Shown piece by piece: positions 13,721 to 31,745 of a stretch of DNA of 35,896 bases (position 1 is its first letter; each line of letters begins with the position of its first letter). The stretch is taken from NCBI GenBank assembly GCA_964372605.1, contig CAYJUC010000003.1:1-35896 (forward strand), in the 5' to 3' direction. The notes below the pieces were generated by a model, which was given only the letters and a program-made list of their open reading frames with translations, was not told where the DNA came from and did no database searches. The position numbers and the translations under genes are program-made. Source of the stretch: an uncultured bacterium. GTDB taxonomy: Bacteria > Methylomirabilota > Methylomirabilia > Rokubacteriales > CSP1-6.

Positions 13721-14935
13721 ATGGCTCAGATGGAGTGGCTCGAGGGCGGAATCACGGCGGTTCCCGGAATCCTCGCATCGGGCATCCACGGAGGAATCAA
13801 GGCCGGCGGGAAAAAGGATCTGGCGCTCATCTACTCCGCGTCACCAGCCCGCGCCGCCGCTGTCTTCACCGGGAACCAGATCAAGGGCGCCCCGGTTCAG
13901 GTCTCCATGGAGCATATCAAGGGGGGGACGGTCCAGGCGATCGTGGTCTCCAGCGGGAATTCCAACGTGTGCACCGGGGAAGCGGGAATCAAGGACGCGC
14001 GCGACATGGCCAAGACCGTGGCGGATCTGCTCCGCATCCCCCCGCGTCACGTGCTGGTGGCCTCGACCGGCGTCATCGGTCGGCCATTGCCGATGGAGAA
14101 GATTCGACCCGCGCTCCCGAAGCTTGTGAAGGCGCTCTCCCCGCAGGGCGGGCGGAACGCGGCCGAAGCCATCATGACCACGGATACGCGCCCCAAAGAG
14201 GCGGCGCTCCGCGTGGAGGTGACCGGTCGACCGGTCACCATCGGCGGGATGGCGAAGGGCGTGGGGATGATTGACCCCCACATGGCGACGATGCTCTGCT
14301 TCATCGCCACCGACGCCGGGGTTTCACAGGAGGCCCTCCAGCCGGTGCTCAAGCGGGCCGTAGACCGGTCATTCAACCGGATCACCATAGACGGAGACCA
14401 ATCGACCAGCGACATGGCGGCGCTCCTGGCGAGCGGCCTGGCCGAGAACGCGCCGCTGGAGAGGGGGAGCCGGGGACTCAGGCAATTCTCCCGCGGCCTC
14501 GACGCCGTCACCCTGCGGCTGGCCCGGATGCTGGTGGAAGACGGCGAGGGCGCGACCAAGCTCGTGGAGATCGCCGTGCGGGGAGCCAGGAGCCGGAGGG
14601 ATGCGCTCGCCGCCGCCCGCGCGGTGGCCACCTCGCTCCTGGTGAAGACCGCGATCAACGGCCAGGACCCGAACTGGGGACGGATCATGATGGCGTTGGG
14701 GAAAAGCCCGGCGCGGGTAGAGGCCGAGCGGGTGGCGGTCTGGTTCGGCGACGAGCAGGTGGTGGAACGGGGTCAATTCCGGCCGGGAGCGAAGGCGGAT
14801 CGCCTCAGGGAGATCATGGCGCGGCCCGAGTTCACCATCCAGATTGACCTCGGAATCGGCGCAGGCAGAGAACAGGTCTGGACCTGCGATATTTCCGATG
14901 AGTATGTGCGGATCAATGCGAAGTACACGACCTGA
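13721..14935 (+). CDS. argJ: Bifunctional ornithine acetyltransferase / N-acetylglutamate synthase
   Basis: 404 aa with the autoproteolytic site motif [14 protein letters not shown]. Immediately downstream of argC. Confidence 0.9.
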
Positions 14936-14941
14936 ACTCTC

Positions 14942-14963
14942 GGAGGGGGTGGGGACCCCCTCC
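14942..14963 (+). terminator. GC-rich stem-loop after argJ (possible terminator, weak U-tract)
   Basis: GGAGGGGGT-GGGG-ACCCCCTCC, a 9-bp stem, 7 nt after the argJ stop. No clear T-run follows it. Confidence 0.35.
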
Positions 14964-15036
14964 GAATTACACACGCTTCCCAAGTTCGGTCCCCGGCAGG
15001 GGTCGGGAGGCGGAGGCAAACCGACGGAGGAATAGC

Positions 15037-15807
15037 ATGACCACATTGACGATGAAGGAGCTCCTCGAAGCGGGGGTCCATTTCGGTCACCAGACCAAGC
15101 GATGGAACCCAAAGATGCAAAAGTACATCTTCGGGGAGCGGAACGGGATCTACATTATCGATCTGCAGAAAACCCTGAAGAAGTTCCGCGAGGCCTGCAC
15201 CTTCGTCCGCGACCTGGCCGCGGAGGGGGGGACGCTCCTGTTCGTCGGAACCAAGAAGCAGGCCCAGGACACCGTGTTCGAAGAGGCGACCCGCTGCGGC
15301 ATGTTTTACGTGAACCAGCGGTGGCTGGGGGGAACCCTGACAAATTTTGCCACGATCCGGAAGTCTATCGCCCGCCTGAAGAAACTGGAGGAGATGAAGG
15401 AGACCGGCGAGTACGAGCGACTTCCGAAGAAGGAGGTGCTCGGGCTCGAGCGCGAGCGGCGGAAGCTGGAAAAAGCCCTGATCGGAATCAAGGAGATGGA
15501 CCGGGTCCCCGCTGCCGTGTACATCATCGATCCCAGGAAGGAAAAAATCGCGACGGCCGAGGCCCGGCGTCTGGCCGTCCCGATCATCGCCCTCGTGGAT
15601 ACCAACTGCGATCCCACGGGGATCGATTATCCCGTTCCCGGGAACGACGACGCGATCCGGGCGATCCGCTTGATCAGCTCCCGAATCGCCGACGCGGTCG
15701 TCGAAGGGCGGGGCAGCCTGGCCAAGGTGACAGCCGAGGAAACATCTGAAACGCCCGAGGCGCCGACGCCGGAGAGCCTGATGGCGCCGGCTCAAGCGGG
15801 TTCGTAA
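15037..15807 (+). CDS. rpsB: 30S ribosomal protein S2
   Basis: [22 protein letters not shown]...; GGAGG 7 nt upstream of the ATG. Confidence 0.95.
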
Positions 15808-15823
15808 AAGGAAGGCGAGACCG

Positions 15824-17747
<1,924 letters not shown>

Positions 17748-17773
17748 GGTCGGGCGTCGGCCATCGCCCCCTG

Positions 17774-17800
17774 AGGCCCCGGATGGGGCCTTTGCGTTTT
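17774..17800 (+). terminator. Rho-independent terminator after frr
   Basis: AGGCCCC-GGAT-GGGGCCT, a 7-bp GC stem, followed by TTGCGTTTT. Confidence 0.65.
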
Positions 17801-17859
17801 ACAGAGGATGTTTCTGCCTTGAATCGGCGCTGGACTTTTGAGTAAGATACTGGAAGAGC

Positions 17860-18642
17860 ATGGTGTCGCATTCGGATCACGGTCTCGCGCTGCAGGATCT
17901 GAGGGCTCTGGAAGAAGCGGGGCTCTTGGAGCGGATTCAGTCCCGTTCCCTCCCCCAGCACGTGGCGATCATCATGGATGGTAACGGCCGCTGGGCCACC
18001 CGGCGGGGGCTCCCTCGGGTGGCCGGGCACAGGGAGGGCGTGAAGGCGGCGCGGACGATCGTGAAGGCCGCCGACGAGCTGGGGATCCGATTTCTCACTC
18101 TCTACGCGTTCTCCTCAGAGAACTGGAGCCGCCCGTCCGAGGAGGTTTCCACCCTGATGAGCCTCCTGGAGCGCGCCATCGATCAGGAGCTGGCGGAGCT
18201 CATGGCCAAGAACGTCAGGCTCAAGGTGATCGGACGCGCGGAGGGAGTGCCGGCGCAGGTGAGGCGGGGGATCGATCGGGCGGTCTCCGCCACCCTGGCC
18301 AACACCGGGATGACGCTGATTATGGCCTTCAACTACGGCGGGCGCGACGAGCTGGTGGATGCCTTCCGCGTCCTGGCCCGCGAGATTCAGACCGGGTGTC
18401 TCCGCTTGGAGGAGATCGATGAGGTGCGGGTGTCCCGCGCGCTCTACACCGACGGGGTGCCGGACCCGGACCTGCTGATCCGGACCAGCGGGGAAATGCG
18501 GGTCTCCAACTTCCTTCTCTGGCAGATCGCCTACACGGAGCTGTGGGTCACCGACACGCTGTGGCCCGATTTTGATCGGCGCGAGCTTTACCTGGCGGTG
18601 GCGGACTTCCAGAATCGGGAGCGTCGGTTCGGCAGGGCGTAG
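17860..18642 (+). CDS. uppS: Isoprenyl transferase / di-trans,poly-cis-undecaprenyl-diphosphate synthase
   Basis: HVAIIMDGNGRWA, LTLYAFSSENWSRP and IRTSGEMRVSNFLLWQ signatures. A possible promoter TTGAAT-18-TAAGAT lies at 17819..17848. Confidence 0.9.
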   Translation: MVSHSDHGLALQDLRALEEAGLLERIQSRSLPQHVAIIMDGNGRWATRRGLPRVAGHREGVKAARTIVKAADELGIRFLTLYAFSSENWSRPSEEVSTLMSLLERAIDQELAELMAKNVRLKVIGRAEGVPAQVRRGIDRAVSATLANTGMTLIMAFNYGGRDELVDAFRVLAREIQTGCLRLEEIDEVRVSRALYTDGVPDPDLLIRTSGEMRVSNFLLWQIAYTELWVTDTLWPDFDRRELYLAVADFQNRERRFGRA

Positions 18643-18651
18643 GGGACGCCG

Positions 18652-19530
18652 ATGCAATCCCCGTTCCCGGACGCGGGGGCGACTTCGCCCGCGCCAAAGG
18701 CCACCGAGCTGACCCCTGTTTCTCCGTGGGTGGTGCCTCTGGCAAAGCGCGTGGGGAGCGCGGCTCTCTTCCTGCCGTTCTTCGTCTGGCTCGTGGAGTA
18801 CTCGCCGGCGTGGCTGTTCCCGGCCTTCGTGGTCCTGGTAGGAAGCGTGGGGCAGTGGGAGTTCACGCGGATGTTCGCCCGGTCCGGATCGGAGGTTTAC
18901 CCCTGGCTGGGTCTTCTGGCCGGAGTCGCCATCACCGCGAGCTTCGCGGTGCCCGGGGCGGGTCCGGCCGTCCTGACCCTGACGGTGGCCGCGTTCCTGA
19001 GCCAGAGCCTGGCGAAGACGGGGCCGTCCGGTCCGACGTGGGAACCGTGCGCCCTGACCTTTCTGGGGGTTGTCTACGTGAACTGGCTCCTGGGCTACTC
19101 ACTCTGGCTGCGGGCTCTGCCGCACGGGGCGGACTGGATCTTTCTCCTGGTGTGGGTGACGTGGGTGGGAGAATCCACGGCGTATCTGGTCGGCACCGCC
19201 GTAGGTCGGCGCAGGCTGTCGCCCCGGATCAGCCCGGCCAAAACCGTCGAGGGCGCGGTCGCCCAGCTCCTCGTATCGCTCCCGGCAGCGCTGGCCGGAC
19301 GGTGGTGGTTTTTCCCGGAGTGCTCGGTGAAAGACGCGCTGATCGTGGGGCTGATCCTCGGGTGCATAGGCCAAGTGGGGGACCTGGTGGAATCCTTGCT
19401 CAAGCGGAGCGCCCACACCAAGGACACAGGGCGCCTGATCCCGGGGCACGGCGGGTTGCTGGACCGGCTCGACAGCCTGCTCTTCAACACGCCGGCGTTG
19501 TTTTACTACGCGCGTTACCTGGCGACATGA
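18652..19530 (+). CDS. cdsA: Phosphatidate cytidylyltransferase
   Basis: A 292-aa multi-TM protein with the C-terminal signature SLLKRSAHTKDTGRLIPGHGGLLDRLDSL. Confidence 0.85.
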   Translation: MQSPFPDAGATSPAPKATELTPVSPWVVPLAKRVGSAALFLPFFVWLVEYSPAWLFPAFVVLVGSVGQWEFTRMFARSGSEVYPWLGLLAGVAITASFAVPGAGPAVLTLTVAAFLSQSLAKTGPSGPTWEPCALTFLGVVYVNWLLGYSLWLRALPHGADWIFLLVWVTWVGESTAYLVGTAVGRRRLSPRISPAKTVEGAVAQLLVSLPAALAGRWWFFPECSVKDALIVGLILGCIGQVGDLVESLLKRSAHTKDTGRLIPGHGGLLDRLDSLLFNTPALFYYARYLAT

Positions 19531-19578
19531 CACTGCGGTGAATCATCGGGTCGCCGCCGGGAGAGGGGGACTTTACTC

Positions 19579-20919
19579 GTGACCGCGATCGTTTCGTTTG
19601 TCGTCGTAATCGGGATCCTGATTTTGATTCATGAGCTGGGACATTTCTTTGCGGCCCGACGGATGGGAGTCGGGGTCGAGCGCTTCTCCGTAGGGTTCGG
19701 CCCCATCCTGTTCCGCCTGAAGCGCGGCGAAACCGAATACTGCCTCTCGGCCGTTCCCCTGGGCGGATACGTGAAAATGGTCGGCGAAGACCCCCGGGAG
19801 GGCGAGTCCGCGATTCCCGTCGCCCCCGAAAAGTCCTTCGCCCTGAAACCTCTTTGGGCGCGAAGCCTGATCGTGTTCGCCGGTCCGGGGATGAACTTCG
19901 TGCTCGCCGCGGCCATCTTCGCGGCGGTCTTCATGGTCACTGGCCGGCCGGTGCTGCCGTCGGTCATCGGACGGATCCAACCGGGGTCCCCCGCGGCGCA
20001 GGCGGGGCTACAGACCGAGGACCGGGTGATCGCGATGGACGGGAAGGCCGTGGCCCACTGGGACGATCTGGTCAAGGCTCTTCAGTCCTCCCACGGCGAG
20101 ACCGTTCAGCTCACGATCCGGCGGGGCGAGGCCGAGCGGAAGCTGGCCCTGACCCCAGCGCGGACCAAGGTGAAAGATGTCTTCGGTAGCGAGCAGGAGA
20201 TCTGGGATCTGGGGGCCCGGCCCTATATCCCCGCCAGAGTCGGGGAAGTGCTGGCCGGCTACCCGGCCGCCAAGGCGGGCCTCAGAGCCGGAGACGTTAT
20301 GACCGCGCTGGACGGGGCGGCCGTCTTGTCGTGGGAAGAGCTGGCTGAGGGAATCCACAAGCGCCCCGGGCGCAAGGTGGCGCTCAGCGTGCGGCGGGGC
20401 GGGGAGTCGCTGACCATCGAGGTCGTTCCCCAGGCCACGAAACAGCGGTCGCCGTCAGGGGAGGAGACCCTGGTGGGCCTGATCGGGATCAGCCCCGCCG
20501 GAGCCGTCACCTACGTTCGGTCGAATCCCGTCGTCGCCATGGGGGAGGGAATCATCCGAACCGGCGAGATCACCGCGCTCACCGTGGTCGGGCTCTGGAA
20601 GCTCGTGAAGCGGGAGCTTCCGGCCTCCGCCATCGGCGGGCCGCTCCAGATCGCGGTGTCGGCGGGAGAACAGGCCCGGCAGGGATTCACCAGCCTGGCG
20701 TTCTTCACCGCCGTGATCAGCATCAACCTGGCCGTGCTGAACCTGCTGCCGGTGCCCATGCTGGATGGCGGCCACCTTTTCTTTTTCGCCATCGAGTCGG
20801 TGATGGGGCGCCCGCTCTCCGTGCGGAAGCGGGAGCTGGCCCAGCAGGTGGGGTTCTTTCTTCTGGCGCTCCTCATGGTCTTCGCGATGTACAACGACAT
20901 CCAGCGATTCTTCAGATAG
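19579..20919 (+). CDS. rseP: RIP site-2 metalloprotease RseP
   Basis: HELGHF zinc motif in TM1, two PDZ-like regions, and C-terminal NLLPVPMLDGGH. Confidence 0.9.
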   Translation: MTAIVSFVVVIGILILIHELGHFFAARRMGVGVERFSVGFGPILFRLKRGETEYCLSAVPLGGYVKMVGEDPREGESAIPVAPEKSFALKPLWARSLIVFAGPGMNFVLAAAIFAAVFMVTGRPVLPSVIGRIQPGSPAAQAGLQTEDRVIAMDGKAVAHWDDLVKALQSSHGETVQLTIRRGEAERKLALTPARTKVKDVFGSEQEIWDLGARPYIPARVGEVLAGYPAAKAGLRAGDVMTALDGAAVLSWEELAEGIHKRPGRKVALSVRRGGESLTIEVVPQATKQRSPSGEETLVGLIGISPAGAVTYVRSNPVVAMGEGIIRTGEITALTVVGLWKLVKRELPASAIGGPLQIAVSAGEQARQGFTSLAFFTAVISINLAVLNLLPVPMLDGGHLFFFAIESVMGRPLSVRKRELAQQVGFFLLALLMVFAMYNDIQRFFR

Positions 20920-20928
20920 GAGCGGGCG

Positions 20929-23118
20929 ATGACACAAAGACGGAAGACGCGTCAGATTCAACTGGGCGGGGTCAAAGTGGGCGGGGACGCCCCCATCACC
21001 GTTCAGTCCATGACCAAAACCGACACCCGCGACGTGGAAGCAACCGTGCTCCAGGTCTGGTCCCTCGAGGCCGCCGGCTGCGACATCGTCCGGTGCGCGG
21101 TTCCGGACAAAGAGGCGGCGCTGAGCCTCGGCCGGATCAAGCGGCAGATCCGGATCCCCCTGGTGGCGGATATCCACTTCAACTATAAGCTGGCGCTCCT
21201 CGCCCTGGATCAGGGAGTGGATGGCCTCCGCCTGAATCCGGGGAACATCGGGGGAAAGCAGTTCGTGATGGACGTCGTGAAGATGGCTCAGGCGCGAAAG
21301 ATTCCGATCCGGATCGGCGTCAACGCCGGCTCCCTGGAGCGGGACCTGCTGGCCAAGTATAACGGTCCGACGGCCCAGGGAATGGTGGAGTCCGCGCTCC
21401 GCCACATCCGGATCCTGGAGGAGTGCGGCTACCCGGAGATGAAGATCTCGCTCAAGGCCTCCGACCCGGCCATGATGATCGAGGCCTACCGGATGCTGGC
21501 CGATCAGGTGGAGTACCCGTTCCATCTGGGGGTGACCGAGGCGGGGACCCCGACGGTCGGCACCATAAAGTCAGCGGTTGGCCTCGGCACGCTTCTCGCT
21601 GAAGGGATCGGTGACACGATTCGCGTGTCGCTTGCGGCGGATCCGGTGGAGGAGGTGCGGGTCGGGATCGAGATTCTCAAGGCCCTGGGGTTCCGAAAGC
21701 AGGGGCTGACCTTCGTGGCCTGCCCCTCCTGCGGCCGGGCCGATGTGGACCTGGTGAAGCTGGCCAGGGACGTAGAGGAGCGATTGAAAGGGATCACCGC
21801 CGAGGTGCACGTGGCCGTGATGGGATGCCTGCCTTCTGGTCAGCAGGTTGTCACCAGGGCGGGCCCGAAGCCCATTGAGGCCATCGAGGAGGGCGAGGAG
21901 GTCCTGACCAATGCGGGGTCGTATCAGAAAGTGCTCTGGTCAACCAGCCACACCTACGAGGGCGAGCTGGTGGAGGTGCGTCCCACAGGCTTTCCCCCCT
22001 TCCGGCTCACTCCCAACCATCCGGTGTGGGCCTTCCCTCGGCCCTCAAAGCGGAAGGGGGGTAGAGACAAGCGCCGGCATATTCTGAGCGTCCTGGAAGA
22101 GGGGATCGAGCCGAAATGGGTGAATGCCGGCGAGCTTAGTCCTGGATGGGTCTTAGCCTTTCCGGTTCTCCAGGAAAAAGAAGACCGCGCGACGCTGACA
22201 GCCGATGGGCTCGGCGTCATCCCGGTTGACGAGGACTTTCTCACCTTGTGTGGCTACTACCTGGCTGAAGGTACGCTGTCGGGGGAATATGGAAAGCCTT
22301 ACCAGCAGTTCTTCTACTTTCACGAACGGGAGGCCGCCTATGTAGAGAAGCTCCGGACCATCCTAGGAAGCCTCGGGCTCAAATCGAGCCTTCAGCACAG
22401 GCGTCATGCGACCGAGGTCATTACTCACTCCCTCGCCCTGGGAACGCTACTGGAGAGTCTCTTTACGCGAGGGGCGGAGGCCAAGCACCTCCCCGGCTGG
22501 ATGGTGACACTCCCTCACGAGAAACAGCGGGCGCTGATTCGGGCCCTGTGGGAAGGAGACGGCTATCTGGGTTGTGTCAGGGGTTACTGGCGGGCCGCTT
22601 ACTGCACGTCCTCGTGGAGGCTCGCTGTGCAGGTCCACCAGATCGTGCTCCGTCTCGGAATCGCTGCGTTCCTGCATCATCGCGATCAGCGGGGCCGGAA
22701 ACGGAACTGGGTCATTTCGGTCACTTCCAAGCCGGCTCTGGCCCGGCTCCGCCAGGTGCTCGGGCTCCCCGCGACGCTTGAGTCCGACGCCTCCAGGACG
22801 GGGCAGGTGGTGATCGATCAGCAAGCCCTGTATGTCGGCGTGCGCGCGGTTCGACGGATCCCTTACGCTGGCCACGTCCATAACCTGGAGGTGGAGGGTG
22901 TTCATTCCTTCTCGGTTCCTGGCGCGGCCTTGCATAACTGCGAGGTGAACGGCCCGGGCGAGGCGCGCGCCGCCGACATCGGCGTGGCCGGCGGGAAGGG
23001 GATCGGCCTGATCTTTCGTAAGGGAGTCGTCGTGCGGAAGGTACCGGAGGCTCAGATCGTGGATGCCGTCTGGGAGGAGGTCGAGCGGTTCATCGCCGAG
23101 CGGGAAGTTCTCAAATGA
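20929..23118 (+). CDS. ispG: 4-hydroxy-3-methylbut-2-en-1-yl diphosphate synthase (flavodoxin), interrupted in frame by an intein
   Basis: The N-extein (aa 1-299) carries the TIM-barrel motifs (APITVQSMT, LRLNPGNIG, HLGVTEAG) and CPSCGR. The C-extein (aa 671-729) begins CEVNGPGEA. The exteins sum to 358 aa, a normal IspG length; the precursor is 729 aa. Confidence 0.9.
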   Translation: MTQRRKTRQIQLGGVKVGGDAPITVQSMTKTDTRDVEATVLQVWSLEAAGCDIVRCAVPDKEAALSLGRIKRQIRIPLVADIHFNYKLALLALDQGVDGLRLNPGNIGGKQFVMDVVKMAQARKIPIRIGVNAGSLERDLLAKYNGPTAQGMVESALRHIRILEECGYPEMKISLKASDPAMMIEAYRMLADQVEYPFHLGVTEAGTPTVGTIKSAVGLGTLLAEGIGDTIRVSLAADPVEEVRVGIEILKALGFRKQGLTFVACPSCGRADVDLVKLARDVEERLKGITAEVHVAVMGCLPSGQQVVTRAGPKPIEAIEEGEEVLTNAGSYQKVLWSTSHTYEGELVEVRPTGFPPFRLTPNHPVWAFPRPSKRKGGRDKRRHILSVLEEGIEPKWVNAGELSPGWVLAFPVLQEKEDRATLTADGLGVIPVDEDFLTLCGYYLAEGTLSGEYGKPYQQFFYFHEREAAYVEKLRTILGSLGLKSSLQHRRHATEVITHSLALGTLLESLFTRGAEAKHLPGWMVTLPHEKQRALIRALWEGDGYLGCVRGYWRAAYCTSSWRLAVQVHQIVLRLGIAAFLHHRDQRGRKRNWVISVTSKPALARLRQVLGLPATLESDASRTGQVVIDQQALYVGVRAVRRIPYAGHVHNLEVEGVHSFSVPGAALHNCEVNGPGEARAADIGVAGGKGIGLIFRKGVVVRKVPEAQIVDAVWEEVERFIAEREVLK
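21826..22938 (+). mobile_element. Class 1 intein with LAGLIDADG homing-endonuclease domain (371 aa) within ispG
   Basis: Starts with Cys (CLPSGQQVV, block A). Block B TxxH (LTPNHPV). LAGLIDADG motifs LCGYYLAEGT (about 22237..22275) and LIRALWEGDGYL (about 22531..22569). Blocks F/G VHNLEVEGVHSFSVPGAALHN, followed by the +1 Cys (TGC 22939..22941). Confidence 0.85.
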
Positions 23119-23190
23119 ATGCGGAATGTGGAGTGCGGAATGAGTAAGGAGCGTCCCCTTTTCGCATTCCGCATTCCGAATTCGCCATTC
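23117..23190. repeat. Imperfect 26-bp inverted repeat (21/26) built from GGAATG/CATTCC units; candidate ispG terminator or REP-like element
   Basis: The left arm (23117..23142, gaatgcggaatgtggagtgcggaatg) pairs with the right arm (23165..23190, cattccgcattccgaattcgccattc). The 22-nt loop contains AAGGAG and CCCCTTTT. The segment is low-GC relative to its flanks. Confidence 0.55.
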
Positions 23191-23203
23191 CATATTTGAG
23201 AAG

Positions 23204-24898
23204 ATGCGCTGGTCACGGTCATTCATCCCCACGCTCAGAGAGGACCCGGCAGACGCCGAGGCGGTGAGCCACAAACTCATGGTGCGGGCTGGCCTGGTTC
23301 GCCAGCTCGGGGCCGGGATCTATGTCTACCTTCCCCTCGGCCAGCGGGTGATCGACATGGTCAACGCCATCATCCGCGAGGAGATGAACCGGATCGGGGG
23401 TCAGGAGCTCAGCATGCCGATGCTCCATCCGGCCGAGATCTGGCGGGAGTCCGGGCGGTGGGATGCCATCGGCGGCGAGATGTTCCGCCTGAAGGACCGG
23501 AACGACCGGGACCTGTGTCTGGGGATGACACACGAGGAGGTCGTCGCGTGGATGGCCTCGCGAGAGATCCGGTCATACCGGGACCTGCCGCAGATCTGGT
23601 ACCAGATCCAGACCAAGGCGCGCGACGAGGCGCGCCCCCGGTCGGGCGTTCTCCGCACTCGCGAATTCCTGATGAAGGACTCCTACACTCTGGACGCGGA
23701 CGAGGTCGGGCTGGCCAAGGCCTACGATGCCCACAAGGCGGCCTATTGCCGGATATTCGACCGGTGCGGGATCTCCTACGTGGTGGTCGAGTCCGACCCG
23801 GGGATGATGGGCGGGGCGGGCTCCCACGAGTTCATGGCTATGAGCCCAGCCGGGGAGGACGAGGTCGCCCTCTGCGCCAAATGCGGTTACGCCGCCAACG
23901 TGGAGCTCGCTCGCGGCATTCCTGCTTCCCCCGCCTTTCCCGACTGGAGACCGGAAGAGGTCGCCACTCCCGACGCCCGTACGATCCCCGAGGTCTCCGC
24001 CCTCCTCAAAATCCCCCCGGCCCTGGCGATCAAATCCCTGCTCTTCATCAGCGCAAACGGGCCTGTTCTCGCGCTGCTCCGCGGGGATCAGACCCTTCAC
24101 GAGAAGAAGCTGGCCAGGCTGGTGGGTGAAATCCGTCCGGCCCACCCCGAGGAGGTCAGGACGACTTTCGGGGCGGGCGCGGGATCCATCGGGCCGGTCG
24201 GAGTGAGCGTTCCCGTGGTCGCCGACGAGTCCCTGAAGGATGGGGTCTACGTGGCCGGCGCCAACCGGGATGGCTACCACCTTCGGGGAGTCAGACCTGG
24301 CCAGGATTTCCAGCCTCGCTTTGCCGACCTGCACGCGACCCAGTCCGGCGAGGCGTGCCCGCAGTGCGGGGCGCCGCTGGCGGTGGAGCGGGTCATCGAG
24401 GTGGGGAACATCTTCAAGCTCGGGACCAAATACTCCGTGCCCCTCGGGGCCATGTTTCTGGATGAGAGCGGCCGGGAGCATCCCATCGTCATGGGGAGTT
24501 ACGGGATCGGTCCTGCCCGTATCGCCGCGGCTGCCATCGAACAGCACCACGACGCGGACGGAATCGTCTGGCCCTGGAACATCGCTCCCTTTCAGATTCA
24601 CCTCCTGCCGGTGAACGTCAAAGACCGGTCCCAGATGGCAGCGGCCGAGGAGCTTTATGAAGATCTCGTCCGGGAGGGGTACTTGGTGTTACTGGATGAT
24701 CGGGACGAGCGACCGGGGGTGAAGTTTAAGGATGCCGATCTGATCGGCCTTCCCGTGCGGGTCACGGTGGGGACCGCGTTCGTGAGGGAGCAGGTGGTCG
24801 AGGTCCGCTCCCGCCGATCCCGGCAGGATCGAAAAATCGACAAGCGCGAGGTTCTCGTCGCGGTGAGGGAGCTGGCCCGAGAGCTTGCCAAAGCGTAG
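23204..24898 (+). CDS. proS: Proline--tRNA ligase (bacterial type with INS editing domain)
   Basis: MRWSRSFIPTLREDPADAE...; class II motifs (FRLKDR, TREFLMKDSYT, GSYGIGPARI). 564 aa. Confidence 0.95.
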   Translation: MRWSRSFIPTLREDPADAEAVSHKLMVRAGLVRQLGAGIYVYLPLGQRVIDMVNAIIREEMNRIGGQELSMPMLHPAEIWRESGRWDAIGGEMFRLKDRNDRDLCLGMTHEEVVAWMASREIRSYRDLPQIWYQIQTKARDEARPRSGVLRTREFLMKDSYTLDADEVGLAKAYDAHKAAYCRIFDRCGISYVVVESDPGMMGGAGSHEFMAMSPAGEDEVALCAKCGYAANVELARGIPASPAFPDWRPEEVATPDARTIPEVSALLKIPPALAIKSLLFISANGPVLALLRGDQTLHEKKLARLVGEIRPAHPEEVRTTFGAGAGSIGPVGVSVPVVADESLKDGVYVAGANRDGYHLRGVRPGQDFQPRFADLHATQSGEACPQCGAPLAVERVIEVGNIFKLGTKYSVPLGAMFLDESGREHPIVMGSYGIGPARIAAAAIEQHHDADGIVWPWNIAPFQIHLLPVNVKDRSQMAAAEELYEDLVREGYLVLLDDRDERPGVKFKDADLIGLPVRVTVGTAFVREQVVEVRSRRSRQDRKIDKREVLVAVRELARELAKA

Positions 24899-24905
24899 CG
24901 GCCCC

Positions 24906-24934
24906 TTGCCGGGGAAGGGGAGGTGTGCTAAACT
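24906..24934 (+). promoter_or_regulatory. Weak candidate promoter TTGCCG-17-(TGc)TAAACT upstream of the terminator hairpin
   Basis: TTGCCG at 24906..24911, a 17-nt spacer ending in TGC (extended -10-like), then TAAACT at 24929..24934. Confidence 0.3.
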
Positions 24935-24938
24935 CCTT

Positions 24939-24964
24939 AAAAAGTGGGCGTTGCCCACTTTTTT
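24939..24964 (+). terminator. Strong Rho-independent (bidirectional-type) terminator
   Basis: AAAAAGTGGGC-GTT-GCCCACTTTTTT. Perfect GTGGGC/GCCCAC stem (24944..24949 / 24953..24958), a 3-nt loop, a 6-T run, and an A-run upstream. Confidence 0.85.
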
Positions 24965-24986
24965 AGTTGCTGTTGCCAGGGCCCAG

Positions 24987-25616
24987 ATGGAGATGCACGA
25001 GCGGCTCTCGGAGGTGGAGAGTCTGGTCTCTCCGGCGCTCAGTGACCACGGGCTGACCCTCGTGGATCTGGAGTGGCGTCGGGAGGGACGCCAGTGGGTG
25101 TTGCGGTTCTTCGTCGACAAAGCAGAGAAGAAGGGTGGGGGGCCGAAGGGTGGGAAGCCGCAGGCGGGGCGGGAGATCAACGCAGGGAAGCCGCAGGCGG
25201 GGCGGGAGATCAACGCTGGGGGGCCGGAGGCCGGGCGGGAGATGATGCCGGGGCAGGAGATCGAAGCCGGGAAGCCGGAGGCGGTAAGCATCGCTGAGTG
25301 CCAACGCTTCAGCCATGAAGTCGGGGACATCCTCGAAGCTTCCGGGCTCTTCCCCGAGAGTTACGATCTCGAAGTCTCCTCCCCGGGTCTGGATCGGGAG
25401 CTGAAGAAAGAACGGGAATTCCGGTGGGCCACGGGGAAAACCATTCGGTGTTGGGTCTCCCAGGCCGTGGACGGAAAGACCGAGTTCACGGGGCAGCTCA
25501 GGCGCGTCACAGACGACCTCATCAGCCTGGAGGGGTCCGGCGGGCATCTCCATGAGCTGCCAAGGAGGCTCGTGACTAAGGCGCGGCTCGAGCCCGACTT
25601 TGCCCGCCGCCGCTAG
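24987..25616 (+). CDS. rimP: Ribosome maturation factor RimP with a repeat-containing insertion
   Basis: From ATG 24987: MEMHERLSEVESLVSPALSDHGLTLVDLEWRREGRQWVLRFFVDK ... SPGLDRELKKEREF.... The ORF-track start at 24885 lies before the terminator. About 45 aa of G/K/P/Q/E-rich repeats are inserted after FVDK. Confidence 0.85.
   Translation: MEMHERLSEVESLVSPALSDHGLTLVDLEWRREGRQWVLRFFVDKAEKKGGGPKGGKPQAGREINAGKPQAGREINAGGPEAGREMMPGQEIEAGKPEAVSIAECQRFSHEVGDILEASGLFPESYDLEVSSPGLDRELKKEREFRWATGKTIRCWVSQAVDGKTEFTGQLRRVTDDLISLEGSGGHLHELPRRLVTKARLEPDFARRR
25152..25250 (+). repeat. In-frame 33-bp tandem repeat (3 copies plus degenerate tail to ~25283) inside rimP
   Basis: Copies 1 (25152..25184) and 2 (25185..25217) are gggaagccgcaggcggggcgggagatcaacgc[a/t], 32/33 identical, each encoding GKPQAGREINA. 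Copy 3 (25218..25250) is about 75% identical. Confidence 0.9.
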
Positions 25617-25625
25617 GCTCCTCAG

Positions 25626-25644
25626 AGGGGGGCTTCGCCCCCCT
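25626..25644 (+). terminator. GC stem-loop after rimP (possible attenuator/terminator, poor U-tract)
   Basis: AGGGGGGC-TTC-GCCCCCCT, an 8-bp stem, 10 nt after the rimP stop, followed by only TT. Confidence 0.35.
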
Positions 25645-25835
25645 TCCGAGCCTCCCCCCGGGTGCAGTTCGAGCGTGGCGGGCTCGGCCATGCCGTAAGG
25701 CAGGCCACCCCCGGCGCGAGGCCCGAGTTAATGGCGCGGGCAAAGCCCGTGCACGGAGCGGGTGGGCGAGGCTGTTACTGGATTTTGACTTTACTCCGAC
25801 AAGCCGCTAGCCGGCGCGGTCGCAGGCAGGGCAGT

Positions 25836-27161
25836 ATGAACCGGGAACTGATCTACGTCATCGATCAGATCGGTCGCGAGAAGGGGATCGACAAAGAGGT
25901 CCTCTTCGAGGCCCTGGAGTTTGCGCTTCTCTCGGCGTCGAAGAAGACCATGGGGGCCGACGAGAACGTTCGGATGCGCGTCGACCGCGCCACCGGGGAG
26001 TTCAAGGTCCTCTGCGCGAAGAAGGTGGTCCCGAAGGTCAGCGACCTAAAGGTCGAAATCAGCCTGGCCGAGGCGCGAAAGATCCGGCCCGACGCCCAGC
26101 TCGATGAGGAAGTGGAGATCGAGCAGGCCCTCGGCGACTTCGGCCGGATCGCGGCCCAGACCGCCAAGCAGGTGATTCTCCAGCGGGTGCGCGAGGCCGA
26201 ACGGGAGGGCATCTACGCGGAGTTTGTCGGCAAAGAGGGGCAGATCGTTCGCGGCGTGGTTCACCGGATCGAGAGACGCAACGTGATCGTGGAGCTGGGG
26301 AAGGCGGAGGGGATCCTCCCTGAGCGAGAGCAGATCCCGGGGGAGCGCTACAACCCCGGGGATCGGATCCGCGCATACGTCCTGGAGGTCAAAAAGACCG
26401 CCAAGGGACCCCAAATCACCCTCTCGCGCACCCACCCGGCGCTCCTGGCGCGGCTTTTCGAGACCGAAATCCCGGAGATCGCCGAGGGAATCGTGCAGGT
26501 CAGAGCCGCCGCGCGGGAGCCGGGCGAGCGCGCGAAGGTGGCCGTGGCCTCGACCAAGCGGGACGTGGACCCCATCGGGGCCTGCGTGGGACTTCGGGGG
26601 ACCCGCATCCAGGTGATCAGCCGGGAGCTCCGCGGCGAGAAGATCGACATCGTCGAGTGGTCGGAGGATCCGGCCACTTTCATAGCCAGGGCGCTCTCAC
26701 CCGCCAAGGTCAGCTCTGTGTCTCTGCGGGGGGACCAGGAGCGCTCGGTTCTGGTGACGGTTCCCGATCATCAGCTTTCCCTCGCCATCGGCAAGAAAGG
26801 CCAGAACGCGCGGCTGGCCGCGAAGTTGACCGGGCTCAGGGTCGACATCAAGAGCGAATCGGAGCTGGTGGAGGAACGGCGTCGGGAGGAAGAAGAGCGG
26901 GCTCAGGGGCGTCTCGTCCTCGCGGAGTTTCCGGGGGTTGGCCCTCAGCTTGTGGAGAAGTTGGTCGAGCACAGCCTCTTCTCGCCCGCCCGCATCGTTC
27001 GCGCTGGTCTCCCGGCGCTCATGGAGATTCCGGGAGTCGGGGAGAAGAAGGCCGAAAAGATCTTCACAGCCGCCCAAGCCTGGATGACGCAGCAGGATGA
27101 GGCGCTCGCGGCCCCCGAGGCTCCGGCGGAGGATCAGGAGCAAGGGGCGGAGTCGGCGTGA
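25836..27161 (+). CDS. nusA: Transcription termination/antitermination factor NusA
   Basis: From ATG 25836: MNRELIYVIDQIGREKGIDKEVLFEALEFALLSASKK. S1 and KH domains are present (GACVGLRGTRIQ, LAIGKKGQNARLA), with a C-terminal HhH-like region. The ORF-track 58-aa extension is rejected. Confidence 0.95.
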   Translation: MNRELIYVIDQIGREKGIDKEVLFEALEFALLSASKKTMGADENVRMRVDRATGEFKVLCAKKVVPKVSDLKVEISLAEARKIRPDAQLDEEVEIEQALGDFGRIAAQTAKQVILQRVREAEREGIYAEFVGKEGQIVRGVVHRIERRNVIVELGKAEGILPEREQIPGERYNPGDRIRAYVLEVKKTAKGPQITLSRTHPALLARLFETEIPEIAEGIVQVRAAAREPGERAKVAVASTKRDVDPIGACVGLRGTRIQVISRELRGEKIDIVEWSEDPATFIARALSPAKVSSVSLRGDQERSVLVTVPDHQLSLAIGKKGQNARLAAKLTGLRVDIKSESELVEERRREEEERAQGRLVLAEFPGVGPQLVEKLVEHSLFSPARIVRAGLPALMEIPGVGEKKAEKIFTAAQAWMTQQDEALAAPEAPAEDQEQGAESA

Positions 27162-27466
27162 GGACCGAGCCCCGGCGCACCTGCATTGGATGCCGGCGGG
27201 TGTCGCCGAAGCCACGGCTGATCCGGCTCGTAAGACTGCCGGACGGGCGAGTGTCGGTGGATAGTTCGGGACGCGGGAGCGGGCGGGGCGCGTACGTGTG
27301 CCCGACTCCGGGTTGTCTGGAGGCGGCGCTCAAGCGCGGGAGGCTGGCTCAAGCGCTCCGCGGTCCGGCGGCGGTGGGGGACGAGACCCTGGCGCTCCTT
27401 CGGATCCGAACGGGAGAGGCAGCGCTTGAGAGCCGGGAGCGTGAAACCTCGGCGGTGAAAGGGTAG
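27158..27466 (+). CDS. rnpM: YlxR/RnpM family (DUF448) RNA-binding protein
   Basis: RRTCIGCRRVSPKPRLIRLV...GRGAYVCP motif. GTG overlaps the nusA stop (GTGA). Conserved position between nusA and infB. Confidence 0.85.
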   Translation: MRTEPRRTCIGCRRVSPKPRLIRLVRLPDGRVSVDSSGRGSGRGAYVCPTPGCLEAALKRGRLAQALRGPAAVGDETLALLRIRTGEAALESRERETSAVKG

Positions 27467-27472
27467 GGGACG

Positions 27473-29953
27473 ATGGCCGCACGGGTAAAGGTGATCGATC
27501 TGGCCAAGGAGCTGGGGGCGACCAGCAAGGAGTTGCTGGTGGCCCTGGCGGAGATGGGTTTGAAGGGCCAGCGCACCGCTACGCCCTTGGAGGAGCCGAT
27601 CGCTCGCCAGCTTCGCGCCCAGTTCGGCCGCGGACGGAAGATGGCGCCCGCCCCCAAGGCTCCGAAGGCGACCAAGCCGAAAGCAACGGCTGTTACGGTT
27701 GAGACGCCTGTCACAGTTGAGTCGCCCGTCACAGTCGAAGCGCCGAAAAAGAAGGCTCCGAAAAAAGCCGCTGTCAGGAAGCCCAAGGAAATCGCCGCGC
27801 CCGAGGTCAAGGTTCAGGAGACGGTGGCGGCCAAACCGGTGGCGGCGAAACCCGCGGAGATCCATCTCCCCGAGCCAGCGCTTCCCAAAGTCGAGCCGAA
27901 GCCCGTCCTCAAGGCAGTCAAGCCGGAAACGAAAGTCGCCCCCGCCCCTCCGAAGCTCAGGCCGATCGAGAGGATCCCTGCGCCTCCTCCGCCGCCTCCC
28001 GCGGCGCCCCCTGCGCCCAAAAGGGTCGCTCCGCCGCCCGCGGCGAAAAAGGTCCCGATTCCCGCTCCCGCGGCTGCCGCGCCGCCTCCACCTCCGGCCC
28101 GAGTGGCCGAGCCCCGACCGATCGTTCCCCCGCTGCCACCGCCCGTGGTTCTACCGCCACCTCCGGTTCCCGAGGCGCCTCCTCTCCCGCCGCCCCCGGT
28201 GGAAGTCAGGCGCGGGCTTATCAAGCTCCCCGAGTCGGTCACCGTGGGCGAGCTGGCGTCGAGCATGCGCCGGAAGTCGGTGGAGGTCATCAAGGCGCTC
28301 CTCGAGATGGGGGTGATGGCCACCGTCAACGAAATCGTGGACCCGACCGCCGCCAAGCTCGCGGCGGACAGGTTCGGCTTCGACGTAGAGATCCGCTCTC
28401 TGGAAGGAGAAGAGGTTCTGGACGAGGAGGTGGATTCCTCCCAGCTCCGGCTTCGCCCGCCGGTGGTGACGGTGATGGGACACGTGGATCACGGGAAGAC
28501 ATCGCTCCTCGACGCCATCCGCCGGACCAAAGTAGTGGAAAAGGAATTCGGCGGGATCACCCAGCACATCGGCGCCTACCAGGTGGAGACTTCTCACGGG
28601 AATGTCACCTTCCTGGACACCCCGGGTCACGAAGCCTTCACGGCCATGCGGGCGCGCGGGGCCCAGGCCACCGACATCGTCATCCTGGTGGTGGCGGCGG
28701 ACGACGGAGTCATGCCCCAGACCGTGGAGGCCATCAACCACGCCAAGGCGGCCAACGTGCCGATCATTGTGGCCACCAATAAGATCGACAAGCCCGGCGC
28801 CGATCCCGAGAGAGTCAAACGCGAACTCTCCAATCTGGGACTGGTCCCCGAGGAGTGGGGCGGGCAAACTATCTTCGTGCAGACCTCGGCGAAGCAAGGG
28901 ACCGGCGTCGACAGCCTGCTGGAGATGACCGCGCTCCAGACCGAGATTCTGGAGCTCAAGGCCAACCCCCAGCGGGCGGCCAGGGGCGTGATCGTGGAAG
29001 CGAAGCTGGACCGGGGCCGGGGCGCGGTGGCCACCGCGCTTATCCGGCAGGGAACCCTCCGCGAGGGGGATGCTGTGGTGGTGGGCCGACACTACGGACG
29101 GGTGCGGGCCATGTTCAACGACCGGGGGAAGAAGGTGCGCGAGGCCGCCCCGTCCGATCCCGTCGAGATCCTCGGGCTTTCGGGAGTTCCGCTGGCCGGA
29201 GACACGCTGGTGGCCGTTGACGATGAGCGGAAGGCCCGGCAGATCGCCACCGTCCGCCAGGATCGGGAGCGCGAGAAAGCCAAGGGAGCGGTGCGGGTGA
29301 CCCTGGAGGATCTTCACAAGCGGATCACCGCCGGCGAGGTGAAAGAGCTCCGCTTGATCCTGAGGGCCGATGTCCACGGATCGGTGGAGGCCCTCACCGA
29401 GTCGCTGGAGCGCCTCTCCACCGACGAGGTGAAGCTGAAGGTGATCCACGGTTCGGTCGGCGCTATCACCGAGACCGACATCATGCTGGCCGCGGCTTCC
29501 AACGCCATCGTGCTGGGGTTCAACGTCAAGCCCGAGCCCAAGGCAGTGACTCAGGCCCAGGCCGAAGGCGTCGATCTGCGGGCGTACAACGTCATCTACG
29601 AGGCCATCGACGACATCAGGGCAGCCCTGTCTGGGCTCCTGGCTCCCGAGATCCGAGAGACCTCACTGGGCAAGGCGCAGGTGCGCGCGCTCTTCTCCCT
29701 CTCCAAAGCGGGGACCGTTTTGGGTTCCTATGTCCTCGAGGGAAAGATCGCGCGGAATGCGAAGGTCCGGGTGCGGCGGGACGCCGCCGTGCTGGGGGAG
29801 GGGGTCATCAACTCGCTCAAGCGGTTCAAAGACGACGCGCGGGAGGTCGTTCAAGGACTCGAGTGCGGCATCGGGGTCGAAGGCGTGAGCGGTGTCCAAG
29901 TGGGAGACGTGATCGAGGCGTACACCACCGAAGAAGTTGCCCGAACCCTTTAA
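27473..29953 (+). CDS. infB: Translation initiation factor IF-2
   Basis: 826 aa. G-domain [26 protein letters not shown]. Pro/Ala-rich variable N-terminal region. Confidence 0.95.
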
Positions 29954-30024
29954 GACCGGTGGCCTCCTCGGCACGATCAGGGTCTTCTCGGTGGGCTTGC
30001 GCCCCGGTGAGTCGGGGGTAGGTC

Positions 30025-30315
30025 GTGACGGCGGCGCGCGTGGCCTTGGGGACGGTGGAGCTTCACCTCCCGGCGGTGAGGTCGCTCAAAGAGAAGCGGC
30101 ACGTTCTCAAGGGGCTCCAGGAGAAGCTGAAGCACCGCTTCGGCGTCTCCGTGGCCGAGGTGGACCATCACGACTCATGGCAGCGGGCTACCCTGGCGGT
30201 GGTCTGCGTCTCCCACGAGTCCCGCCATGCCAATGAGGTTGTTTCCAAGGCGGTTCATTTCCTTGAGTCCCTGGTGGATGGCAACGTGATTGACGTCTCC
30301 GTCGAGATCCTCTAG
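30025..30315 (+). CDS. DUF503 family protein (YlxP-like)
   Basis: LGTVELHLPAVRSLKEKRHVLKGLQEKLKHRF... fits the DUF503 pattern. Conserved position between infB and rbfA. GTG start. Confidence 0.8.
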   Translation: MTAARVALGTVELHLPAVRSLKEKRHVLKGLQEKLKHRFGVSVAEVDHHDSWQRATLAVVCVSHESRHANEVVSKAVHFLESLVDGNVIDVSVEIL

Positions 30316-30382
30316 CGTGCATAATCCACGAAGTTACAACCATATTCTCAGGAGGGCCGACGGGTCCTGAGGCGGACTTTCG

Positions 30383-30766
30383 ATGCAAGGCAAGCGAATC
30401 GAGCGGGTGAACCAGTTGATAAAGGAGGAGATCTCAGGCCTTCTCCAGCGCGAGCTGAAGGACCCCAGGATCGGCTTCGTGACCGTCACCGAGGTCCTGG
30501 TCAGCAAAGATTTGAGCCAGGCCAAAGTCTACGTTTCGATCCTCGGGTCCGAGGCGGAGTGGCGAGCGACGTTCGCCGCCCTCGAGAGCGCCAGTGGATT
30601 CATCCACAATCAGCTCCGGCGGCGACTCAGGCTCCGCGCGATTCCTTCGCTCAACTTCCGCCCTGATCGATCCATGGTCCACGCGGCCCGGATCCAGGGC
30701 CTCCTGGCCGAGCTCAATGCTGGAGCGACCGCCGAAGGTGCCGCGTCCCCCGATGAGGAGTCCTGA
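30383..30766 (+). CDS. rbfA: Ribosome-binding factor A
   Basis: RIERVNQLIKEEISGLLQRELKDPRIGFVTVTEVLVSKDLSQAKVYVS, canonical RbfA. Confidence 0.9.
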   Translation: MQGKRIERVNQLIKEEISGLLQRELKDPRIGFVTVTEVLVSKDLSQAKVYVSILGSEAEWRATFAALESASGFIHNQLRRRLRLRAIPSLNFRPDRSMVHAARIQGLLAELNAGATAEGAASPDEES

Positions 30767-31745
30767 GCCGGTGAAGCCGGTCCCTGACGATCTGGTCCAT
30801 CTCCTCTCCCGTCCCGAGGGGTCGATCCTCTTCCTCGCCCACGTCCATCCGGACGGGGACGTGCTCGGCTCGCTGCTTGGCCTCGGGCTGGCCCTCGCGG
30901 GAAGTGGATCTCCGATCACGGTCGCCGGCCCCCATCCTGTGCCGGAGTCTCTCGCCTTCCTGCCCGGCGCCTCCCTCGTCCAGCAGTGGTCGGAGGCAAA
31001 GGGGACCTTCGACCTGGTAATCCTGGCGGACTGCCCGGATCCAGGCCGGACCAACGGTCTCCTGGAGGGATCTCGCGGTCCCGCGACCCGGGTCGTGAAC
31101 ATCGATCACCACCCGGACAACAAGCGCTACGGGGACGTGAACTGGGTGGACCCGGTCGCCTCGGCCTCCGGGGAGATGGTGTACCATCTCGTCTTGGCGC
31201 TGGGGCTTCCACTCACCGCAGAGGTTGCCGTCAATCTCTTCACCGCCATCCATACCGACACGGGGTCTTTCCGCTACTCCAACACCACAACTCACACCCT
31301 CGCGGTCGCCGCAGATCTGGTGGCCCGGGGCGCGGCGCCTGCCCACGTGGCCGCTCGCCTCTACGAAAGTCGGCCAGCGGCGCACTTGAAGCTCCTGGGG
31401 CGATTGCTTCAGCAGGTTCGGGTCAGCGCTGACGGGCGCGTCGCCTGGCTAGCGCTGCCTGCCGGGAGCGTTCCCGAGGCGTTCCTGGAGGCTGAGGATC
31501 TTGTGACGTATCCCCGGTCTATCGCAGGCGTCAAGGTGGCCTTCCTGCTGCGGGAGGTGGAGGCGGGGGTGAAGGTGAGTCTCCGGGCCAAGGGGGAAAT
31601 CGGCGTAGGGCGAATTGCGGCCCGCTTCGGCGGCGGGGGGCACGCCAACGCCGCGGGATGCGTAATCCCGGGGAGCCTCGAGGAGGCGAAACGGGCAGTT
31701 CTCCGGGCCATAAGCGAGGCGATGAACGCCGGAGAACAGGCATGA
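30753..31745 (+). CDS. DHH/DHHA1 family phosphoesterase (NrnA-like oligoribonuclease / pAp phosphatase)
   Basis: LAHVHPDGDVLGS (DHH motif I-II), DHHPDN, and C-terminal GGGHANAAG (DHHA1). The start is either ATG 30753 (overlapping the rbfA end) or GTG 30771. The ORF-track start at 30594 is rejected. Confidence 0.8.
   Translation: MRSPEPVKPVPDDLVHLLSRPEGSILFLAHVHPDGDVLGSLLGLGLALAGSGSPITVAGPHPVPESLAFLPGASLVQQWSEAKGTFDLVILADCPDPGRTNGLLEGSRGPATRVVNIDHHPDNKRYGDVNWVDPVASASGEMVYHLVLALGLPLTAEVAVNLFTAIHTDTGSFRYSNTTTHTLAVAADLVARGAAPAHVAARLYESRPAAHLKLLGRLLQQVRVSADGRVAWLALPAGSVPEAFLEAEDLVTYPRSIAGVKVAFLLREVEAGVKVSLRAKGEIGVGRIAARFGGGGHANAAGCVIPGSLEEAKRAVLRAISEAMNAGEQA

Follow-up and report, generated by a model that had tools for sequence, protein, structure and literature searches.

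The locus considered here raises a simple question: why should an ispG gene encode a protein of 729 aa when the enzyme that can be read from its two ends is 358 aa long? The gene (open reading frame (ORF) 20929..23118, + strand) lies in a 35,896-nt stretch of DNA, referred to below as the window, which is taken from contig CAYJUC010000003.1 of an uncultured bacterium of the Rokubacteriales (Methylomirabilota; assembly GCA_964372605.1), and its product is an essential iron-sulfur (Fe-S) enzyme of the 2-C-methyl-D-erythritol 4-phosphate (MEP) pathway. We propose that the excess is very probably a class-1-type intein with an embedded LAGLIDADG homing endonuclease, situated in frame between Gly299 and Cys300 of the host enzyme. 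Efficient splicing of the present copy is predicted from its sequence with less confidence than this, and continued activity of its endonuclease with less confidence again. The precursor can be divided into the following features, each given with the evidence that defines it.

20929..21825, + strand: ispG N-extein, residues 1-299, comprising the TIM-barrel domain and the first part of the Fe-S domain (matches to the GcpE Pfam family and to NCBIfam ispG equivalog models; gap-free alignment to Aquifex aeolicus IspG, 3NOY)
21826..22938, + strand: whole intein, 371 aa (domain matches, AlphaFold2 model, Foldseek)
21826..22200, + strand: N-terminal part of the Hint (splicing) domain, intein residues 1-125 (Hint_2 match on residues 1-54)
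22201..22836, + strand: LAGLIDADG homing-endonuclease domain, intein residues 126-337 (LAGLIDADG_3 match, fold, deletion in mini-inteins)
22837..22938, + strand: C-terminal part of the Hint domain, intein residues 338-371 (kept in mini-inteins; conserved N371 and H370)
22939..23118, + strand: ispG C-extein, 59 aa and stop codon (alignment to 3NOY, residue numbering)

Motifs, fold and insertion site

The insert occupies exactly 371 codons (21826..22938), corresponding to precursor residues 300-670 and running from Cys1 to Asn371; precursor residue 300 is the Cys that opens CLPSGQQVV, HN stands at 669-670 and another Cys follows at 671. An earlier reading of this DNA, made from its letters and called the sequence-only reading here, had placed a full-size LAGLIDADG intein at these residues; its coordinates are exact, and the motifs it quoted, LTPNHPV, YYLAEGT, LWEGDGY and VHNLEVEGVHSFSVPGAALHN, are all found in the insert. 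Within the N-terminal Hint part, block A is formed by Cys1 in CLPSGQ and block B by FRLTPNHPV (22000..22026) with T62 and H65. Two LAGLIDADG motifs lie on the one chain, each with its acidic residue: motif 1 (TLCGYYLAEGTL, 22243..22278) contains GYYLAEGT with Glu148 at the catalytic position, and motif 2 (ALIRALWEGDGYL, 22531..22569) contains ALWEGDGY with Asp245 at the catalytic position. Blocks F and G (YAGHVHNLEVEGVHSFSVPGAALHN, 22864..22938) end in the penultimate His and terminal Asn, giving the C-terminal junction ...HSFSVPGAALHN/C, the slash marking the boundary between intein and extein here and between flanking sequences below.

The residues expected to carry out splicing are shared by the relatives of this intein. 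In two alignments, one of 12 IspG-hosted homologs (A1) and one of 12 sequences of which two come from other hosts (A2), C1, T62, H65 and N371 are invariant; all other inteins with a recovered N-terminus likewise begin with Cys1, at least 90% of copies have H370 (KN is found in one), and the +1 Cys is conserved. Class 2 and class 3 inteins are variants without the N-terminal nucleophile, and the presence of Cys1 therefore excludes both.

The Pfam family GcpE matches the precursor in two separate stretches (E 1.8e-143), and the exteins are recognised as IspG by the NCBIfam equivalog models NF001540 (477.9 bits, cut-off 345) and TIGR00612 (405.8 bits, cut-off 280). A domain search of residues 300-670, which the sequence-only reading had put forward as a check on its proposal, returned LAGLIDADG_3 above cut-off in two stretches (E 2.7e-12 to 4.4e-13) and Hint_2 (29.6-30.5 bits, cut-off 28.4), while NCBIfam models of intein-containing DnaB, GyrA, Tes and RecA match the insert weakly. 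An AlphaFold2 model of the intein, built on 12 homologous inteins, reached a predicted local distance difference test score (pLDDT) of 91.1 and a predicted template modelling score (pTM) of 0.90, and its 16 best Foldseek matches in the PDB are all intein homing endonucleases, headed by the TliVMA intein (7qsu, E 2e-21, TM score 0.72) and including PI-SceI, the PhoVMA intein, PI-PkoII and PI-PfuI. The predicted model superposes on these solved inteins with their splicing domains included, as a Hint fold should, and shows the alpha-beta-beta-alpha-beta-beta-alpha pseudo-dimeric fold of LAGLIDADG enzymes; its endonuclease part also resembles the free-standing enzymes I-DmoI, I-Tsp061I and I-SceI (E 1e-5 to 1e-7).

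Excision of 21826..22938 leaves a 358-aa IspG joined as ...HVAVMG/CEVNGPGEA..., the N-extein ending in ...HVAVMG with Gly as the -1 residue. As the sequence-only reading had anticipated, this product is colinear with known IspG, aligning to A. aeolicus IspG (3NOY) free of gaps across the junction (E 2.8e-112). In this alignment Met1 of the product falls on residue 10 of the deposited 3NOY chain, which we take to be the native start of the A. aeolicus enzyme, and the two numberings should therefore coincide. The spliced extein carries Cys265 and Cys268, which lie in the N-extein motif CPSC (21721..21732), together with Cys300, which is encoded by the first C-extein codon (22939..22941) and is the +1 Cys of the intein, and Glu307, which follows within CEVNGPGE. 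In A. aeolicus IspG, Cys300 is presumably the third ligand of the [4Fe-4S] cluster and Glu307 the fourth. The +1 Cys of the intein is, as predicted by this alignment, the third cluster ligand of IspG, a point absent from the sequence-only reading. Ligation of the cluster by three Cys and one Glu has been described (PMC9919496), and the three Cys ligands are also given elsewhere (PMC11192765). The intein thus splits C265/C268 from C300/E307 and, since the thiol of the +1 Cys would itself be used in splicing, the cluster would be assembled only after splicing; we infer that cluster binding has to wait for splicing, the unspliced precursor being incapable of it. The locus offers a natural test case for the relation between splicing and cofactor assembly, in which the splicing nucleophile would later become a cluster ligand.

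The course of events that we envisage follows established class 1 chemistry. Translation would give the 729-aa precursor, in which an N-S acyl shift at Cys1 would form a thioester that is then attacked by the +1 Cys. Cyclisation of Asn371 would free the 371-aa intein, and an S-N shift would restore the native Gly-Cys bond, yielding the mature 358-aa IspG. The predicted target of the freed endonuclease is intein-less ispG, to be cut at the conserved ...GCCGTGATGGG/TGCGAGGTSAACGG..., after which repair would copy the intein into the empty allele (homing), and the invariant, essential insertion site would guard the intein against imprecise loss.

Distribution and mobility

Searches with the intein sequence found 58 proteins, nearly all of them fragments combining GcpE and LAGLIDADG, from metagenomes and from metagenome-assembled genomes of Rokuibacteriota or Methylomirabilales; NCBI labels such proteins simply IspG, often 'partial', and the automated annotation of JGI reads 'intein/homing endonuclease'. 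In a scan of one genome per GTDB species, the same element occurs at 63-78% identity in Rokuibacteriota/Methylomirabilota (L001-L023 and L077; at least 24 species-level genomes) and at 40-43% identity at eight loci in Armatimonadota (L024-L030 and L032), the junction VMG/C...HN/C(E/V/I)VNGPGE being present at every locus of both groups whose contig reaches it. A profile search of 1.84 billion representatives gathered 28,798 matches from the whole LAGLIDADG-intein superfamily and brought no more than four further clusters of IspG inteins at the 50% level, P0184, P0185, P0189 and P0192, the last of which stands for a fourth lineage with the junction ...HVAVMG/C...HN/CRVNGPGE. More than 30 independent assemblies from different studies reproduce both junctions in frame at the same codon, and assembly chimerism, which the sequence-only reading had named as a possible source of the insertion, is therefore excluded. 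The Armatimonadota carriers include the complete genome of the cultured Candidatus Fervidibacter sacchari PD1 (L024, NZ_CP130454.1:1858139-1871260), in which splicing could be checked in a native host by way of the predicted spliced-junction peptide DIAVMGCVVNGPGEAR. Viral contigs were also scanned and contained relatives of 33% identity or less and no ispG allele, leaving a phage vector for the intein unsupported.

A survey of ispG in related genomes, suggested at the time of the sequence-only reading, shows alleles with the intein, alleles without it and alleles with a mini-intein. The best 120 matches listed for the spliced extein measure 337-388 aa, and therefore none of these carries the intein; the closest full-length relatives among the matches listed (90-91% identity, 363-364 aa) are intein-less and of the same lineage. 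One empty allele with the same rseP-ispG-proS synteny (L081) has the junction DNA GCCGTGATGGGA/TGTGAGGTGAACGGCCC, which is nearly identical to the joined exteins of the window, GCCGTGATGGGA/TGCGAGGTGAACGGCCC, so that the difference between the two, as read from the aligned DNA, is a clean 1113-bp insertion at a candidate homing site.

Selection on the parts of the precursor was estimated as the ratio of nonsynonymous to synonymous divergence (dN/dS) by the Nei-Gojobori method across 17 Rokubacteria precursors; dS is saturated (about 1 or more) in many pairs with the window, for which reason the medians are those of pairs with dS of 0.05-1.5 only. The endonuclease has a median dN/dS of 0.23, the two Hint parts have 0.24 and 0.18, and the N-extein has 0.13. 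Both acidic residues of the LAGLIDADG motifs are retained in most full-size copies from two phyla, including those that are about 41% identical. Intein and host divergence disagree in some pairs: the exteins of L017 and L018 are 97% identical (dS 0.36) and their inteins 80-82% (dS 1.2-1.4), those of L002 and L014 are 95% identical as against 70-73% for the inteins, and over 136 pairs the correlation between extein and intein identity is moderate (Spearman 0.60).

Copies in decay are found in the same family. One or both acidic residues have been lost in L008, L020, P0001, P0006, P0010 and P0015, and mini-inteins of 142 aa occupy ispG in L077 and P0050-P0055. The mini-inteins keep residues 1-72, 92-127 and 338-371 and lack residues 73-91 and 128-337, the latter being nearly the whole endonuclease domain; the end-points of the deletions are identical in all of them, although they are only 63-85% identical to one another, and their nearest full-size relative is P0015, the most degenerate copy, in which both acidic residues are gone. 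This pattern suggests that the mini-inteins may descend from a single event of decay followed by deletion and have diversified since.

The intein also differs from its host in composition, in agreement with the remark in the sequence-only reading that it is less rich in guanine and cytosine (GC) than its flanks. Its GC content is 0.622 as against 0.647 and 0.667 in the exteins, and its GC content at third codon positions (GC3) is 0.733 as against 0.85 and 0.83, which is lower than in all 164 codon windows of the same size taken from the other genes of the window (mean 0.831, standard deviation 0.028, minimum 0.744). In all 21 alleles compared, GC3 is lower in the intein than in the extein, on average by 0.088. 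The empty, degenerate and mini alleles, the discordance between intein and host, and the low GC3 together indicate that the family is probably a mobile element caught at several stages of the homing cycle.

Three IspG entries in the databases, P0026, P0056 and P0057, are likely mosaics in which assembly has joined full-size with mini-intein alleles. P0056 carries the N-terminal Hint part of P0004 fused to the C-terminus of a mini-intein, with a VMGW junction, and P0026 has an endonuclease with an internal deletion; read-derived mosaics of this kind should not be taken as evidence for new allele types.

The sequence-only reading did not recall IspG as a described intein host and raised the possibility of a new insertion allele. 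Full-text literature searches combining inteins with IspG, GcpE, the systematic enzyme names, isoprenoid, Rokubacteria and the carrier phyla found no description of an IspG/GcpE intein; the genome paper of Methylococcus capsulatus and a review on ginsenosides mention both intein and IspG in unrelated connections. The main text of the 2015 intein survey makes no mention of IspG and assigns 61.5% of bacterial intein hosts to replication, recombination and repair and 21.7% to nucleotide metabolism (PMC4760082). The allele is thus undescribed in the literature found, as had been suggested, but it is not unique, dozens of copies being present in public databases. Its host aside, the intein is a typical full-size LAGLIDADG element; what is new is the insertion allele, the kind of element being well known.

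The known host range of inteins is widened by an allele that is well populated and lies in an Fe-S enzyme of core metabolism, in the MEP pathway. At a single site and across two phyla the family presents alleles that are empty, active-looking, degenerate or reduced to mini-inteins, which makes it a compact data set on the homing cycle, and one that is relevant to uncultured bacteria of soil and groundwater. Filters based on length or on the coverage of hidden Markov models could misjudge intein-bearing ispG, for instance when the completeness of the MEP pathway is scored in Rokubacteria. The 142-aa mini-intein with its Gly/Cys junction may find a minor use in protein engineering.

Alternative readings of the insert

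Several observations weigh against our reading of the insert or restrict what can be drawn from it. The Pfam family Intein_splicing stays below its cut-off (16.9 bits, cut-off 35.8), and when the intein sequence was compared with PDB chains no match was significant (best E 0.29; PI-PkoII E 0.46), so that a fold search was needed to recognise the fold of an intein endonuclease; it is by the Hint_2 and LAGLIDADG_3 matches, together with the motifs and the predicted fold, that the insert is recognised as an intein. At the block F position all members of A1 and A2 have an invariant Asn (VHNLEV), where inteins usually have Asp. The source genome of the window is absent from the species representatives, the best intein match being only 78% identical and the species of the window therefore not among them. 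Purifying selection across the family is no proof that the present copy of the endonuclease is active, and both splicing and DNA cleavage are predicted activities for every member of the family.

That the insert is no intein at all, being either a permanent domain as in the long (~606-613 aa) three-domain forms of IspG or an artefact of assembly, is a view to which we give next to no probability and which we regard as effectively refuted. Such long forms do exist, and the NCBIfam models PRK00694 and PRK02048 match the precursor in part, but with 231 and 221 bits they fall far short of their cut-offs (1045 and 886) and cover the extein regions only. The insert lies within the Fe-S domain between the ligands C268 and C300, a position incompatible with a permanent domain, and not between the TIM-barrel and Fe-S domains, which together with the low scores rules out the three-domain form. 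A single metagenomic contig could not by itself exclude misassembly, but the recurrence of both junctions in the independent assemblies does so, and the Hint and LAGLIDADG matches and the predicted intein-endonuclease fold are those of an intein.

Given an intein, it is possible, although in our view doubtful, that it splices and is otherwise an immobile passenger, with an inactive endonuclease, inherited only vertically and on its way to a mini-intein or to loss. The degenerate motifs and 142-aa mini-inteins found within the same clade are what this would predict, the correlation of 0.60 between extein and intein identity implies much vertical inheritance, and the activity of an endonuclease cannot be revealed by sequence alone. 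The copy in the window, however, retains both E148 and D245, the dN/dS of the domain is about 0.23 across the family, and the mismatch in dS between intein and extein in several pairs of closely related hosts argues for recent exchange.

A further proposal would make the intein more than a parasite, namely a post-translational switch that has been co-opted by the host, redox- or iron-gated splicing controlling the maturation of the oxygen-sensitive IspG. We consider this improbable. Splicing would on this view be reversibly blocked by a disulfide between Cys1 and the +1 Cys or by a metal bound to C265, C268, Cys1 and the +1 Cys. The proposal draws on the double role of the +1 nucleophile as a cluster ligand, with two more ligand cysteines 32-35 residues upstream, on the persistence of the intein in two phyla and on the retention of mini-inteins that lack the endonuclease. 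Stress-responsive splicing in other inteins also speaks for it: the Mycobacterium tuberculosis (Mtu) SufB intein is reportedly a sensor of oxidative and nitrosative stress, the mycobacterial DnaB intein is said to splice in response to stress, and an intein caught in a redox trap was reportedly described by Callahan in 2011. Against it, the closest relatives of the window do well without the intein, selfish inteins generally insert beside catalytic or ligand residues and require no benefit to the host, and related inteins lie ahead of an active-site Cys in proteins that have no kinship with IspG, a pattern pointing to a need for Cys at +1 and a conserved target and not to regulation specific to IspG. 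IspG has been described, in favour of a switch, as an oxidative-stress-sensitive node of the MEP pathway (PMC11192765). Were the proposal true, the maturation of IspG would be conditional on redox or iron status.

Gene neighbourhood and known inteins

The inverted repeat that the sequence-only reading had noted downstream of the intein is a real hairpin of 92 nt (23112..23203, -38.4 kcal/mol, z = -5.8) in the spacer between ispG and proS. It is built of GAATGCGGAATG direct repeats with their complements and reaches from 7 nt before the end of the ispG stop codon (23118) to immediately ahead of the start of proS (23204); it is outside the intein and unrelated to it. Considered as a terminator, it shows no T-run, and an Rfam search of the hairpin gave only sub-threshold matches to plant microRNA hairpins. 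The hairpin is found in a single copy in the window and in none of the 81 related loci, and the hairpin could be an element of RNA stability or attenuation. In the intein-less L081, a 113-aa ORF stands in the ispG-proS spacer in place of the hairpin. Around ispG, the order of genes in the window (13721..31745) is argJ, rpsB, tsf, a gap that is probably pyrH, frr, uppS, cdsA, rseP, ispG, proS, rimP, nusA, infB and a DHH-family protein; dxr lies directly upstream of rseP in L081, whereas in the window cdsA (18652..19530) abuts rseP (19579) and no dxr is present there.

More distant sister inteins outside ispG are 25-31% identical over the full 371 residues; they begin with CLPxGE and end with VHNLEV...HN as the IspG intein does and reside in different host genes and mostly in different taxa (Thaumarchaeota, the Candidate Phyla Radiation (CPR), Omnitrophota and Limnocylindria). 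For most of these sister inteins the +1 nucleophile, directly after the intein, is a Cys of the host that binds metal or is redox-active. They occur in NifU_N/IscU-like scaffolds at the site GNPV/CGD(I/L/V)M (L031, L033, L034, L036, L037, L043, L050, L060 and L075) and in the beta subunit of 2-oxoacid:ferredoxin oxidoreductase at WC(P/A)G/CGDFGI, mostly in Thaumarchaeota, Limnocylindria and CPR (L035, L038-L046, L049, L051-L056, L059, L061-L065, L067-L071, L073, L074, L078 and L079). Others are found in thioredoxin-reductase-like proteins at YCAT/CDAP (P0271, P0275 and P0313, assigned by the site motif alone), in QueC (P0049) and, with Ser at +1, in Hel308-type helicases (L047, L048, L057, L058, L066, L072 and L080). 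Pfam confirmed one example each of the IscU-like, oxidoreductase beta, QueC and helicase hosts. By extension of the improbable switch proposal, inteins of this clade, whose hosts are IspG, IscU, oxidoreductase beta and thioredoxin-reductase-like proteins, may have a preference for cysteines that are metal- or redox-active. The profile search also brought up very long proteins with 6-9 intein-like stretches each, P0183 (3308 aa), P0186 (4920 aa), P0187, P0193, P0198 and P0206, which are apparent multi-intein proteins.

With the bacterial intein-like (BIL) and Hedgehog/Hint (Hog) autoprocessing domains the IspG intein has the Hint fold in common. Those domains are not known to carry an endonuclease and usually lack the pair of HN and +1 nucleophile; their hosts are variable proteins that are not essential, and their usual reaction is cleavage with no splicing. 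The insert in IspG, unlike them, has all the hallmarks of an intein and sits in a conserved catalytic site.

Nearer in architecture are the full-size class 1 inteins PI-SceI (yeast VMA1), the VMA inteins of Thermococcus litoralis and Pyrococcus horikoshii, PI-PkoII and PI-PfuI, which like the IspG intein have a two-motif LAGLIDADG endonuclease set into a split Hint domain and share Cys1, the block B TxxH, the terminal HN and the +1 Cys. They are the best structural matches of our model (7qsu, 1vde, 2cw7 and 1dq3) and likewise occupy a highly conserved site in an essential gene. The IspG intein differs from them in its host and in its site before the Fe-S ligand Cys300, its identity to solved inteins is 11-18%, and with 371 aa it is shorter than PI-SceI (429 residues, 1vde_A) and PI-PkoII (537 residues, 2cw7). 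The Asn at its block F position, commonly Asp elsewhere, is a further difference.

In the nature of its host the IspG intein has its counterparts in the inteins of M. tuberculosis SufB, of Pyrococcus abyssi MoaA, known for its redox trap, and of Tes (NF045703), all of which reside in Fe-S enzymes or in proteins of Fe-S metabolism. They have the Cys1 and +1 Cys nucleophiles in common with it, so that oxidation or metals could hold the precursor in each case, and Tes, a radical S-adenosylmethionine tetraether lipid synthase, is moreover lipid- and isoprenoid-related; the Tes intein model matches the insert weakly (E 3.5e-5, 21.8 bits, cut-off 1700). Hosts and sites differ throughout, and the splicing of the IspG intein is a prediction from sequence; what sets the IspG intein apart from these systems is that its +1 Cys, as predicted by alignment, itself ligates the catalytic [4Fe-4S] cluster of the host.

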